Below, in pieces: positions 54,001-56,803 of a stretch of DNA of 56,803 nt; the stretch's first letter is position 1; each line of letters opens with the position of its first letter. The DNA is from Candidatus Omnitrophota bacterium. Its GTDB lineage: Bacteria > Omnitrophota > Gorgyraeia > JAGLLT01. Location: positions 1 to 56,803 of the forward strand of contig JAGLLT010000015.1 of the NCBI GenBank assembly GCA_023140385.1, given 5' to 3'. Made by a program: the position numbers.

Positions 54001-56803
54001 ATATTATGGTTTATTTTAGCAACTGCTTTTATAATCGCGGCAGCCGATGAAAAATTCCAGTCTTTTATCCCCGGGCGGGATTCAAGCGTCTTTGATCTTA
54101 TTTTTGATATGATGGGAGTGTTATGCGGACTAATCATTTACAGAAAGGCCGGTTATGACAAAAATAAAGCCCTTTAAGGCGGTTATTTATAATAAGGATA
54201 AAGTAAAAAACTTAAATCTGGTTACGGCTCCGCCATATGATGTTATTTCTTTAAAAGAAAGGAACGCGCTTTATAAAAAAAGTCCTTACAATGTAGTTCG
54301 GTTAATTTTAGGCAAAATTTATAAAAGCGATGTTAAGAACAAAAATAGATATACCCGGGCGGCGGCTTTCATGAAATCATGGATAAAAAAGGACATCCTT
54401 CAGAGGGACACTGATGAGGCTATTTATGTTTATTTGCAGGATTTTTATGATCCGCAGACTAAAAAACGAGTAAAGCGCCTCGGCTTTATTGCCTTATTTG
54501 AACTGCAGGACTTTAAGAAAAAAAATATTTATCCTCACGAGTGGACGTTATCTAAGCCTAAGGCTGACCGTTTTGAACTTATTAAGACGGCGTCTTGTAA
54601 TTACAGTCCGGTTTTTTCTCTTTACAGTGATAAAGAAAAAAAGGTTGATAAGTTTCTCGAGAAGGCTCTCAAGACTAAACCATTAATAAAAACTACAGAC
54701 GCCGACAAGACCATTCATGCCATATATGCCTTGAAGAACACTGCGGGTGTCCGGGGTGTCATTAAGTTGATGAATAAGAAAAAGCTCTTTATTGCCGATG
54801 GGCATCATCGCTATGAAACCGCCCTAAACTATAAAAAATATGTCAAGAAGTTAGGTAAAAAAGGTGCCGGTATTAACTCGTCAGCTACCTTGATGTATTT
54901 CACTAATCTTGAAGACGCGGGCCTGAGGATATATCCTATTCAGAGGGCATTAAAAAATATATCCCTCAAGAGATTAGAAAATCTTACTAAAAATTTGCAA
55001 AAATACTTTGAAATCAAAACCGTCAAAGATAAAGGCCGGATGCTAAATGAGGTTTTGGCCACCAAATCTTCAGATTATGTCTTTGGGATGTATTTAAAGA
55101 GGAAATTTTACATTTTGCGCCTGCTTGATAAAAAAACAGTTGGGTTGGCGGCAAAAAGAAAGAAACCTACACGCGTAGACTGCCTTAATGTCAGCCTTTT
55201 GCACAATTTAATTATAAAAGATATGCTGAAAGCTGATTTTGAGGAGGATGCGGCTTATTTGAAAAAGCCGGAGGCTATTATTGAAGAGGTAAATAAGAAG
55301 AAAGACAGAGTTGGCTTTTTTGTTACTGCCATTACGGCTAATGATATTACAGAGGCGGCCCTAAATGGCGAAAGAATGCCCAGAAAAACAACCTATTTTT
55401 ATCCTAAATTATACAGCGGCCTGGTGATAAATAAAATGAGCCGTCCCTGATATTAATTGAATTCCGCGGAACTTTGAAAATTCATACAGATTTTCATTAT
55501 AGCTATTGAAAATTAGCGCGGGATGTGCTATAATAGTTGTTGTAGGAGATGAAAGAAGAAACGCGTTTGAGGGTGGGTTGGTGGAATTGAGGTGTTTTTT
55601 AAGCACGCCCGAGCCCGAAAGTGTCTCAGGTTCTAAAGCGCAAGATTAGGGGCTTTCCCCAATAAAAAGACGGCGCTACCTGAGATAGGAACCCAAAAGG
55701 TAGTACGGTTTTGGGTTCGGACCCGGACGTGTTTTTTTTTGCCTAAAACAGGCCTAAAAAGATGCCCGAACTTCCCGAAGTAGAAAATATTTGCAGGTTT
55801 CTTAAAAAGAAAATAGTCAAGAAACAGATATCGTCTGTTTCAGTTCGATTAAATAAAGTAGTAAAGAACAGCAGTTATGCATTTATTAGGTACTTAAAAG
55901 ATAAAAGCGTCAGTGATGTTTTCAGAAGAGGTAAGTTTATTATAATCGGCCTCTCTGCTAAGTATTACCTTATCACCCACCTTAAAATATCAGGCCAACT
56001 CCTATATTTATCCAAAAAAGAACCGGTAGCCAAGCATACTCATGTAATTTTCAATTTTAAAAATACAGAATACCAATTGCGCTTTAAGGATGTAAGGCAG
56101 TTTGGGTATATGTATATAATAAAGAGTACTGAGTTAGAGGGTTTTTTAGCTTCAAAAATAGGCCCTGATTTTCCTGATTTGCGCTATAAAGACTTTAAAG
56201 CGATTATTAGTTCAAGAAAGAGGATAATAAAGAGTCTGCTTCTTGACCAAAAACTTTTTTCAGGCATTGGAAACATATATGCCAACGAAGCGCTTTTTAA
56301 AGCCGGCGTTCATCCGGCGGCCTCATCATCCAGCTTAACCCAAGAACAAATAAAGAAACTTTATTCAGCCATTAACTCTATTTTGAGTGAGGCTATCCGT
56401 ATGGGCGGTTCTTCGGTGGATGATTATATACTGCCGGATACCAGCTTAGGCAGTTTTCAGAATAAGCATAAGGTATATCAGAAAGAGGGCGGAAAGTGCC
56501 CGCGATGTTCCGCTATTATAGAGCGCGTTAAACAAAACGGAAGAAGCAGCTGGTTCTGTCCCCACTGCCAAAAATAGGGAAAGATGCCTGTTTTATAAGC
56601 GGAGAAAGATACGGCAGTCAAGCTGTTTTAGGAGCTTGACTTTTTTTCAGCCGTGGGTTAAAATCAAGGAGGTCTGGATGCTTAAAAGGCGGTTTCTTAG
56701 CTGTTAGAACTAAGGAGAAAGTTGTGAAGAGGAATATCGAGCCGGTAGATTTAAGTAGGATTAAAACCATATCCATTAAAAATAGACAGCATAAAGCCAA
56801 AGT

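Follow-up and report, generated by a model that had tools for sequence, protein, structure and literature searches.

The fpg locus and the fold of the upstream RNA

We analyzed a window comprising the whole of a 56,803-nucleotide stretch of contig JAGLLT010000015.1 from a Candidatus Omnitrophota bacterium, in which a DUF1015-family gene is followed by a promoter, a structured element of about 140 nt (55601-55740, plus strand), and fpg (mutM). The survey's finding had described an RNA leader ending in a terminator upstream of fpg, and we located the promoter (55506-55534), the element (55601-55740), the U9 run (55732-55740), and the fpg start (55762) where it had placed them. The element is carried by seven species genomes, four in family f1 and three in family f8. 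Codes are used below to tell these carriers apart, G000 being this genome and G013 the one carrier that lacks fpg; where we count eight sequences, the eighth is a metagenome variant close to G004.

54155-55450, plus strand: DUF1015-family gene, 431 aa (ORF; Pfam PF06245, E 3e-83)
55506-55534, plus strand: sigma-70-type promoter, TTGAAA-17-TATAAT with extended -10 TG (11 of 12 matches)
55541-55600, plus strand: G-rich leader from the predicted start to P1 (prefix folds)
55603-55619, plus strand: P1 5' strand, 17 positions, with two optional extra A-U pairs from AA at 55601-55602
55622-55631, plus strand: 5' strand of the P2 lower helix (partner 55678-55687)
55632-55636, plus strand: five-base bulge UCUAA (alignment)
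55637-55641, plus strand: P2a 5' strand, AGCGC (partner 55673-55677)
55649-55660, plus strand: P2b hairpin, GGGG-CUUU-CCCC (28 of 28 cells paired)
55661-55672, plus strand: A-rich 3' side of the P2 internal loop, AAUAAAAAGACG (alignment)
55673-55687, plus strand: 3' strands of P2a (55673-55677) and of the P2 lower helix (55678-55687) (fold and hand alignment)
55692-55715, plus strand: P3 hairpin, CCCAAAA ... UUUUGGG (48 of 49 cells paired)
55716-55732, plus strand: P1 3' strand (fold and hand alignment)
55732-55740, plus strand: U9 tract abutting P1, with P1 a predicted intrinsic terminator
55762-56577, plus strand: fpg/mutM, 271 aa, ATG at 55762 (Pfam PF01149, PF06831, and PF06827, the full Fpg architecture)
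56616-56641, plus strand: terminator-like hairpin and T run 3' of fpg, followed by a site resembling a promoter for the next gene

The promoter predicts a transcription start near 55541. Our promoter scan as a whole did not rise above shuffles (4 sites found, 3.8 expected), and a promoter of the form TTGAWW-17-TGnTATAVT lies 4-68 nt 5' of P1 in all seven genomes. Given the terminator-like hairpin and the promoter-like site that follow fpg, fpg appears to be the sole gene behind the element. The G-rich leader that precedes P1 is able, in this genus, to pair with the 5' strand of P1, and it contains a 13-codon ORF (55549-55590) that shows no conservation. Since this leader is at most 9 nt long in G003 and G004 and folds into a hairpin of its own in G083 and G013, we do not count it among the conserved parts of the element.

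The element folds as a three-way junction in which P1 encloses a bulged hairpin (P2-P2a-P2b) and a second hairpin (P3), with a minimum free energy of -52.3 kcal/mol (z -3.0; 3 of 200 shuffles folded equally well). The P1 5' strand aligns without gaps to f8, five of its columns are changed on both sides, and a C.A mismatch at position 6 is retained in six of the eight sequences. The bottom six pairs of the lower P2 helix are common to f1 and f8, with one U-A to G-C switch, and the upper four are specific to f1. The middle of P2 differs between the two families. P2b reads GAGG/CCUC in f8, one pair being changed on both sides, and its loop varies in sequence (CUUU, GAUA, or GUUA). In P3, five of the seven columns are changed on both sides, both within and between families, and the loop is variable in f1. 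The junction strands J2/3 and J3/1 are likewise variable; the conserved unpaired bases are located in the P2 internal loops, where an A run 5' of P2a is present in every sequence and a run of at least four A's is retained on the 3' side in all eight.

The stretches AAAGYGCAA and AAAAAGA had been described as single-stranded and invariant, and our alignment amends this on both counts. The AGYGC of the first pairs with GCRCU to form P2a, in which all 35 cells are paired and the Y-R pair covaries: this third pair switches between C-G and U-A separately in f1 (G000 versus G001) and in f8 (G052 versus G083). Nor is either stretch invariant, as G052 reads AAAGCGCGU and AAAAAAU, and G001 reads AAAAGA. 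We also considered a hammerhead on account of CUGA and GAAA strings and rejected it; by eye these do not fit the hammerhead core, and they are not kept in f8.

Covariation, identity, and distribution

We assessed covariation in a hand-built, coordinate-defined structural alignment of the seven species (48 pair columns), which was fitted to the structure and hence favors it. Standard pairs occupy 273 of its 302 cells (90%), a count reached by none of 1,000 column shuffles. Both sides are changed in 14 of the 48 columns, versus 0-4 in controls with the 3' partners shifted by one to three bases. This both-sides count does not discriminate against column shuffles, 44 of 1,000 of which reach 14; only the paired-cell count and the shifted controls give a separation. 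Structure-blind MAFFT alignments already contain compensatory pairs within f1 (2 of 41) and within f8 (3 of 40). A MAFFT alignment of all eight sequences misplaced P3 and the 3' half of P2 in f8 and was excluded from the counts; alignments fitted to the f1 model placed the three f8 sequences inconsistently, one with spurious rows, and were rejected as the basis for a combined f1 and f8 model.

Several observations could be taken to mean that there is no RNA element of its own here, only a chance fold, a small coding region, a minus-strand feature, or a divergent housekeeping RNA. The z score of the single-sequence fold is only -3.0, and a 47-codon ORF (55506-55649) overlaps the element. However, compensatory changes occur in every helix and close relatives differ by one-base indels within the element, and on these grounds we rejected a coding region. 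A feature of the minus strand was rejected because that strand scores 2-15 bits against 147-174 for the plus strand, and because 17 G.U cells, which would be A.C if read on the opposite strand, favor the plus strand. SRP RNA went undetected in the whole genome (no match at E <= 10), which could suggest that the element is a divergent version of it. Yet SRP RNA was found in none of 61 class genomes while the element occurs in only seven, its terminal loops are not conserved, and it matches neither RF00169 nor RF01854. The 6S RNA lies at another site in the genome (83 bits), which removes that identity as well. We therefore consider it highly improbable that the locus holds no RNA element, a reading that these sequence comparisons largely refute. 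The element is very probably a real structured RNA, and the comparisons support a selected, plus-strand RNA with its own conserved promoter.

The claim that the element is absent from Rfam held when it was searched against the 4,227 models of Rfam 15, where no score came at or near a gathering threshold. The region 55300-56000 gave four hits, all with E >= 0.7 and to eukaryotic snoRNA or lncRNA models, and the seven instances gave none at E <= 10. These seven (four f1, three f8) were recovered independently of the survey. Three f1 relatives are 90, 84, and 80% identical to the element by DNA search, and a covariance model built from f1 only gives the three f8 genomes 28.3, 24.5, and 14.9 bits. 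The f8 carriers are all the genomes of their order in the collection (3 of 3), as had been stated. With strict filters, under which weak matches can be lost, the f1 model found f1 and two f8 genomes only among 151 class genomes, and f1 only among 151 phylum genomes.

A pattern scan of GTDB genomes gave nine matches, six real and three by chance, and a second scan on the P2 core returned the same six genomes only. The corresponding scan of metagenome contigs also gave nine matches (one identical to G004, one a close G004 variant, and seven by chance), and that of viral contigs gave none. Two f1 genomes without a match, G002 and G005, are uninformative, since their contigs end inside the upstream DUF1015 gene. 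We regard the three-way junction as a real, clade-specific RNA family that is new to Rfam.

Transcription into fpg and the possible independence of the RNA

The survey's finding placed the element almost always before fpg, and fpg does lie downstream of the U run in six of the seven carriers, the seventh being G013 (f8). Judged by DnaK, Fpg, and gene order, however, f1, f2, and f8 form a single clade: for f8, identity is 83% in DnaK and 48% in Fpg, whereas other families reach at most 73% and 42%, respectively. Because this clade shares a single synteny block, the association with fpg is one inherited event, not a set of independent associations, and carries little statistical weight. The left neighbor in f1 and f8 is the DUF1015 gene, which adjoins the element; in f2, which lacks the element as reported, DUF1015 directly precedes a retained fpg at a distance of 20 nt. 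The RNA was lost in f2. Given that the two genes lie so close without it, the RNA and its terminator are inserted at a site that elsewhere has the form of an operon junction, and they cannot be neutral for fpg expression.

The base of the P1 3' strand (RCACG/CGUGY plus 3-7 more pairs) abuts a run of U5-U9 in all eight sequences, which is the pattern of an intrinsic terminator, although an atypical one whose "loop" is a 95-110-nt domain with two hairpins. A local hairpin at 55710-55727 was rejected as the true terminator, as it has no counterpart in G003 and G004, where UUCG is deleted. The gap from the U run to the fpg ATG is 21 nt in G000 and 8-28 nt across all six fpg-bearing carriers. Since this gap is too small for an fpg promoter, fpg transcription should depend on read-through of the terminator, and the RNA would have to attenuate transcription into fpg in cis. 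Three sets of metatranscriptome contigs, offered as coming from the same sample or study, contained no match to the stretch, which speaks neither for nor against its transcription.

We tentatively favor a conditional cis-attenuator of fpg, to which we give a little less than an even chance. The strong promoter would transcribe the RNA, the three-way junction would fold, and closure of P1 next to the U tract would form the terminator 8-28 nt before the fpg start codon. The decision would be conditional, with a small molecule, protein, or RNA acting on the P2 internal loops and P1 and altering the ease with which P1 closes. A conserved, covarying structured domain in a 5' leader, as is expected of a riboswitch, is present. 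The earlier proposal of a transcription-attenuating leader thus stands in its promoter, its P1/U-tract terminator (8 of 8 sequences), and its short gap, but conditional control lacks a conserved antiterminator.

Indeed, prefix folds of the seven genomes gave no antiterminator or mutually exclusive fold conserved across the four genera. Competing pairing of the P1 5' strand was found only in G000, G001, and G052, and in none of G003, G004, G083, and G013. Only in genera g1 and g49 can the G-rich leader sequester the 5' strand of P1; the 5' hairpin of genus g10 is unrelated, and genus g2 is nearly without a leader. By energy, P1 forms as the default in the folds. The aptamer fold and the terminator are one helix, with no separate expression platform that varies between species, and such sharing of a helix is unusual among known riboswitches.

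P1 as the default, with no conserved competing structure, would also suit an element that senses nothing, does nothing in trans, and simply sets a fixed low fpg level, or that insulates or processes the junction so as to keep the transcripts of DUF1015 and fpg apart. The Fpg enzyme is of low abundance, and we found no terminator-like site between the DUF1015 gene and the promoter. For such a role, however, a simple hairpin would suffice, whereas the junction spans about 130 nt, has conserved loops, and is 84, 79, and 77% identical versus 62-67% for fpg and DUF1015 DNA. A dedicated strong promoter and the retention of the RNA in G013 would also go unexplained. A strong promoter followed by a strong terminator and a conserved complex fold of this size is more than a constitutive attenuator needs, and we consider this reading unlikely.

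The retention in G013 bears on whether the element is instead a stand-alone small RNA gene of about 140-200 nt. Such an RNA would act in trans, perhaps with its A-rich P2 loops as the binding site for a protein; its place before fpg would be inherited gene order, and fpg would be transcribed by incidental read-through. In G013, an 874-nt stretch with the fpg ORF is replaced by 104 nt, beginning a few bases past a shared AU-rich stretch 3' of the U run. The promoter (now TATAAT), RNA, and terminator are retained, and the next gene has its own promoter, so the unit is complete after a clean deletion. Stem changes specific to this lineage, polarized with G052, mostly preserve pairing (a U to C change giving G-C and two C to U changes giving G.U), but the lower P2 helix has two open pairs at its upper end. 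The fpg deletion may also be recent, which would weaken the case for independence: G083 and G013 share 91-94% identity, and at 93% the element is evolving no more slowly than its flanks.

Taken together, G013, with the RNA but no fpg, and f2, with fpg but no RNA, indicate that neither partner requires the other, and the independent small RNA that the survey's finding had named as an alternative fits them about as well. Near-consensus promoter and P1/U-tract terminator signals in all seven genomes, together with the failure to find a conserved antiterminator, are consistent with such a gene. Stable noncoding RNAs have paired ends and start close to their closing helix; here both ends pair in P1, and the predicted start in G003 and G004 is about 6-9 nt before P1. 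On the other hand, fpg, with no promoter of its own, would be choked by a terminator 8-28 nt upstream, and six of seven carriers keep this gene intact. Conserved single-stranded bases available for target pairing are few, and f2 has lost the RNA. We therefore regard a stand-alone RNA as a serious possibility, though doubtful on balance.

Comparison with known RNAs and significance

Among known systems, the guanine-I/purine riboswitch (RF00167) resembles the element in being a 5' leader with its own promoter, in its P1 enclosing two hairpins, in its intrinsic terminator before the ORF, and in its covarying stems with some fixed unpaired bases. The element gives no covariance-model match to it, however, and is about 130 nt long as opposed to about 70 nt for guanine-I. 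Its terminal loops are unconserved and would not support a loop-loop contact like that of L2-L3; its junction strands vary and its conserved bases lie in the P2 internal loops, unlike the conserved junction of guanine-I. Furthermore, the stem of the terminator is P1 itself, and neither a separate platform nor an antiterminator is conserved, in contrast to switches of the RF00167 type.

An 8-oxoguanine riboswitch is described in the available text of PMC10556655 as a guanine-I variant with 31 representatives in Paenibacillaceae, an ON switch always found upstream of an 8-oxoG deaminase; the text uses none of the terms MutM, Fpg, and glycosylase. Like the element, it is rare and narrowly distributed, and as presented there it provides a precedent for RNA sensing of oxidative purine damage (PMC10556655). 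We detected no common sequence or structure between the two. Our element could be a new riboswitch class that reads oxidative purine damage (e.g., free 8-oxoguanine or a formamidopyrimidine base) and sets transcription of the glycosylase. Closure of P1 would then double as termination, and the sensor would consist of the conserved A-rich loops of P2 docked on the P1 helix, whose sequence is conserved; we think this improbable.

With 6S, SRP, and bacterial Y RNA the element shares its own promoter, a compact fold, a terminal closing helix, a defined 3' end, and, in G013, independence from neighboring genes. It matches no model of these three, and unlike them it is confined to one small clade. 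Some terminated leaders, such as Listeria SreA and SreB, act in trans. By analogy, one transcript serving as both attenuator and stable RNA would reconcile the linkage to fpg with the orphan RNA of G013.

If the RNA is a conditional attenuator, it would place a DNA glycosylase of base-excision repair under direct RNA control, of which our literature search found no case, and it would add a fold whose aptamer closing helix is the terminator. If it does respond to oxidative damage, it would be the first riboswitch to control a base-excision-repair enzyme, with a fold unrelated to the guanine-I-derived 8-oxoG class. Should it stand alone, Omnitrophota, whose members are known only through metagenomes, would gain a structured RNA that is strongly expressed and as yet unexplained; our literature search found no RNA families described for this phylum. 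Because the family is small (seven species in one clade), its general importance would be limited, barring the discovery of a ligand or partner. At its length the RNA is amenable to study in vitro, with no need to grow the organism.

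Anatomy of the element and its locus

Between a DUF1015-family gene and fpg/mutM, which encodes a DNA glycosylase, energy folding of the plus strand at 55601-55740 gave a three-way junction of -52.3 kcal/mol, compared with a shuffle mean of -40.4 kcal/mol (z -3.0; 3 of 200 shuffles were equally stable). The parts of the locus are as follows.

54155-55450: DUF1015-family gene (domain match), upstream of the element
55506-55534 (+): near-consensus promoter TTGAAA-17-TATAAT with an extended -10 TG, from a promoter scan that overall gave 4 sites against 3.8 expected from shuffles, no enrichment
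55603-55619 with 55716-55732 (+): helix P1
55622-55631 with 55678-55687 (+): lower helix of P2
between the lower P2 helix and P2a (+): UCUAA bulge
55637-55641 with 55673-55677 (+): helix P2a
between P2a and P2b (+): A-rich asymmetric internal loop
55649-55660 (+): hairpin P2b
55692-55715 (+): hairpin P3
55732-55740 (+): U9 run, continuing the P1 3' strand without a break
55762 (+): start of fpg, 21 nt past the U9 run, with a complete Fpg domain set
downstream of fpg: terminator-like hairpin, then a separate promoter-like site for the following gene

The leader before P1 also holds a 13-codon ORF (55549-55590, ATG to TGA) that contains a pair of adjacent Trp codons and has AGGAG immediately 5'. 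The corresponding leader of a close relative, G001, is about 30 nt shorter and lacks the ATG, and the ORF is probably a chance one. No functional link between DUF1015 and fpg is apparent; a 2026 preprint (10.1101/2024.10.14.618325) proposes that the DUF1015 family is a serine kinase that can substitute for SerB ("SerBK").

As the survey had stated, the element is absent from Rfam: a search of 55300-55996 against Rfam 15 returned just four matches, at chance level (E >= 0.7), and short loci around each of the seven instances described below returned nothing at E <= 10. Our full-text literature search found no riboswitch or leader for fpg/mutM and, among the papers listed, nothing on structured RNAs of Omnitrophota. 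The published 8-oxoguanine riboswitch is a guanine-I variant linked to 8-oxoG deaminase genes in Paenibacillaceae, and MutM, Fpg and glycosylases go unmentioned in its description (PMC10556655). That riboswitch precedes 8-oxoG deaminase genes, whereas the present element precedes fpg in six of seven genomes. We regard it as doubtful that the element is a sensor of oxidised purines with a fold unrelated to the guanine-I-derived class.

Evidence for a selected structure

We compared the element in family f1 (the window's own genome, G000, with G001, G003 and G004) and in f8, a family of another order (G052, and G083 and G013 of genus g10). Structure-blind MAFFT alignments contained compensatory changes at 2 of 41 predicted pairs within f1 and at 3 of 40 within f8. 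Between the families, both MAFFT and a covariance model of the four f1 sequences (R1) misaligned the element, so we set the helices by coordinates in each sequence. This hand alignment is fitted to the structure and is biased in its favor; across eight sequences, it has 48 pair columns in which 308 of 344 cells (89.5%) are standard pairs and 14 columns changed on both sides, and with a near-duplicate left out, the seven species give 273 of 302 cells (90%) and the same 14 double-changed columns. When the 3' partners were slid by 1-3 bases as a control, 30-45% of cells paired and 0-4 columns were double-changed. None of 1,000 within-column shuffles matched the observed paired-cell count. The number of double-changed columns does not discriminate, since 44 of the 1,000 shuffles attained it.

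The survey's claim of compensatory changes across two families stands, with at least one such column in each helix. Both P1 strands are gap-free between f1 and f8 and contain five compensatory columns; 6 of 8 sequences also retain a C.A mismatch at P1 position 6. In P2a, the third pair switches between C-G and U-A inside f1 (G000 versus G001) and independently inside f8 (G052 versus G083), and is U.G in G013. Of the 7 columns of P3, 5 have changed. For the middle of P2, f8 has a different arrangement: an internal loop is followed by pairing of GUGUC to GGCAY, which a U-to-C change makes stronger in G013. Two stretches had been described as invariant and single-stranded, AAAGYGCAA and AAAAAGA. 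The former is mostly the 5' strand of P2a, and neither is invariant, as G052 and G001 differ.

At intermediate distance, the element is better conserved than its coding neighbors. It is 84% identical between G000 and G003 (fpg and DUF1015 DNA, 62-65%), 79% between G000 and G004 (63-65%) and 77% between G083 and G052 (64-67%). In the two closest pairs, its conservation does not exceed that of the flanks: 89% against 92-94% for fpg and DUF1015 DNA in G000-G001, and 93% against 91% for flanking DNA in G083-G013.

The strand is indicated by 17 G.U cells that would become A.C if read on the opposite strand, and by covariance-model scores of 147-174 bits on the plus strand versus 2-15 bits on the minus strand. 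It is very improbable that the element is an artefact, a coding region or a misidentified housekeeping RNA, even taking these together, and we are confident that it is a real structured RNA under selection and belongs to an undescribed family. The RNA family is new but of a familiar kind, that of structured leaders or small RNAs ending in an intrinsic terminator.

Distribution and gene order

The element is single-copy in G000 by DNA search, and full-length DNA matches occurred in 3 of 61 related genomes, all of f1 (G001, 90%; G003, 84%; G004, 80%). In a 151-genome sample of the class, R1 found f1 and two f8 members, G083 (28.3 bits) and G013 (24.5 bits); among the collection's three genomes of the f8 order, all matched, the third being G052 (14.9 bits), which by inspection is clearly homologous despite its weak score and shares the gene context. 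A 151-genome sample of the phylum gave no matches beyond f1. Within the window's own order, 4 of 8 genomes matched; G002 and G005, the f1 genomes that did not match, are uninformative either way because their contigs end inside DUF1015. The reported absence from f2, the sister family of f1, was confirmed: R1 matched neither of two genomes, and 20 nt without the element separate DUF1015 from fpg (L040 2313-2334; L041 1480-1501).

We also searched with two IUPAC patterns, each fitted so that all seven sequences match. Among GTDB species genomes, the first hit nine places (six of these Omnitrophota contigs and three unrelated ones), and the second, covering the P2 core, hit the same six contigs and no others. 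The first pattern had no matches in viral contigs and nine in metagenome contigs, seven of them chance matches, one agreeing with G004 at every position of the 251 nt compared and another a close variant of G004. The family as observed is seven species plus one variant, all within a single small clade of uncultured bacteria. Since both the patterns and the filters of the large model searches were strict, members of greater divergence could exist.

The order DUF1015, promoter, element and U run holds in all seven genomes, with fpg next in six, and f1 and f8 share a promoter type (TTGAWW, 17 nt, TGnTATAVT). The U run lies 8-28 nt from the fpg ATG, which leaves no space for a separate fpg promoter. 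Within the class, fpg is patchy (21 of 61 genomes at E <= 1e-20), and among 14 carriers examined outside f1, f2 and f8, the upstream gene is never DUF1015. In seven of these 14, it ends in a GTWQGIYF-type motif, usually a few bases to about 220 nt off; we take this gene to be UPF0047-like.

The f8 proteins are nearest to those of f1 and f2 for both Fpg (48% identity versus at most 42% for other families) and DnaK (83% versus at most 73%), and G000 and G052 alike carry DnaK 5.4 kb upstream of the element. On these grounds, f1, f2 and f8 are one clade that inherited the gene order once, and the RNA appears to have had a single origin with later loss in f2. The survey's statement that the element almost always precedes fpg thus holds as a count of genomes but not as independent associations, because a single inherited order makes the six cases one evolutionary observation. 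In f2, DUF1015 and fpg probably form an operon, and the 20-nt gap implies that RNA, promoter and terminator were inserted at, or deleted from, an operon junction. Besides its intact fpg, G003 carries a broken copy about 12 kb further downstream (G003:C16:214996-215386; two fragments with 51-64% identity to G000 Fpg, three TGA and one TAA internal stops), and R1 found no second copy of the element in that genome.

Possible attenuator of fpg or stand-alone RNA

The reading that we put first, although tentatively, is that the element is a conditional cis-attenuator of fpg, of riboswitch type or responsive to a factor. For it count the promoterless fpg close behind the terminator, the coupling of a promoter and a terminator that are both strong, and the complexity of the fold together with its sequence conservation. 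If the RNA is made, closure of P1 would set a helix of 12-17 pairs against the U run, and transcription of fpg would then need read-through. With the start codon of G052 just 8 nt past the U run, P1 there would encroach on the ribosome site as well. If this regulatory role proves true, the tie to a base-excision-repair glycosylase would be new.

In search of a conditional switch, we folded the transcripts of all seven genomes from the predicted start to the end of P3 and found no conserved antiterminator. A G-rich leader captures the P1 5' strand in G000, G001 and G052; the strand is free in G083 and G013 because the leader folds into its own hairpin, and G003 and G004 are almost leaderless. 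On predicted energy, P1 forms by default, contributing about 20 kcal/mol in G083. That the element is a fixed attenuator or processing element is unlikely in our view. The conserved unpaired bases are those of the P2 internal loops, not the junction, and the P1 sequence itself is unusually conserved; the A-rich loops may dock on P1, or a protein may recognise the RNA. Both f8 genera have the same P3 loop, CUCAGGAU (L044, L045 and L048), though the P3 stem covaries. The loop could form a pseudoknot with CUUGAG of the P1 3' strand, to which it is complementary over six pairs; nothing equivalent exists in f1. The f8 P1 strands also contain the palindrome CUUAAG.

The lack of a conserved alternative fold also fits a stand-alone small RNA, a reading that is quite possible. 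The element has its own promoter and terminator, its 5' and 3' ends are paired, f2 lost the RNA yet retains fpg, and in G013 the element is an orphan without fpg. G083 and G013 remain collinear, at 91% identity, from DUF1015 across the promoter, a small 5' hairpin and the element as far as the U run. Further on, where G083 has an 874-nt stretch containing the fpg ORF, G013 has 104 unrelated nt instead; homology returns, at 94.6%, at the following gene's own TTGACT promoter. No Fpg domain was found anywhere in the G013 genome, which is 89% complete. Promoter (its -10 now TATAAT) and terminator are retained. With G052 as outgroup, the G013-specific stem changes are mainly pair-preserving (one U to C giving a G-C pair, two C to U giving G.U pairs), and of two pairs atop the lower P2 helix that are unpaired in G013, one is unpaired in G052 too. 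This pattern suggests that constraint persists without fpg, but the deletion may be recent, so retention is no proof of it. What remains of our expectation falls to mixed cases, for instance a leader that is terminated and works in trans as well.

The g10 hairpin (GAGAAG-loop-CUUCUC; L045 and L048) lies in the 20 nt before P1 and abuts it. Its stem is kept and its loop differs between the two genomes, and it is absent from f1 and G052.

Among other RNAs, SRP RNA model RF00169 matched none of 61 class genomes at E <= 0.01 and nothing in G000 at E <= 10, nor did RF01854 match in G000; of 14 control genomes, 11-13 were positive in the same searches. Six exact short domain-IV motif sites in G000 had no Rfam match. 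The SRP RNA of the class is either very divergent or was missed by the tool's first look. A 6S RNA (RF00013) is present at G000:C33:92794-92950, scoring 83.2 bits, above the cut-off.
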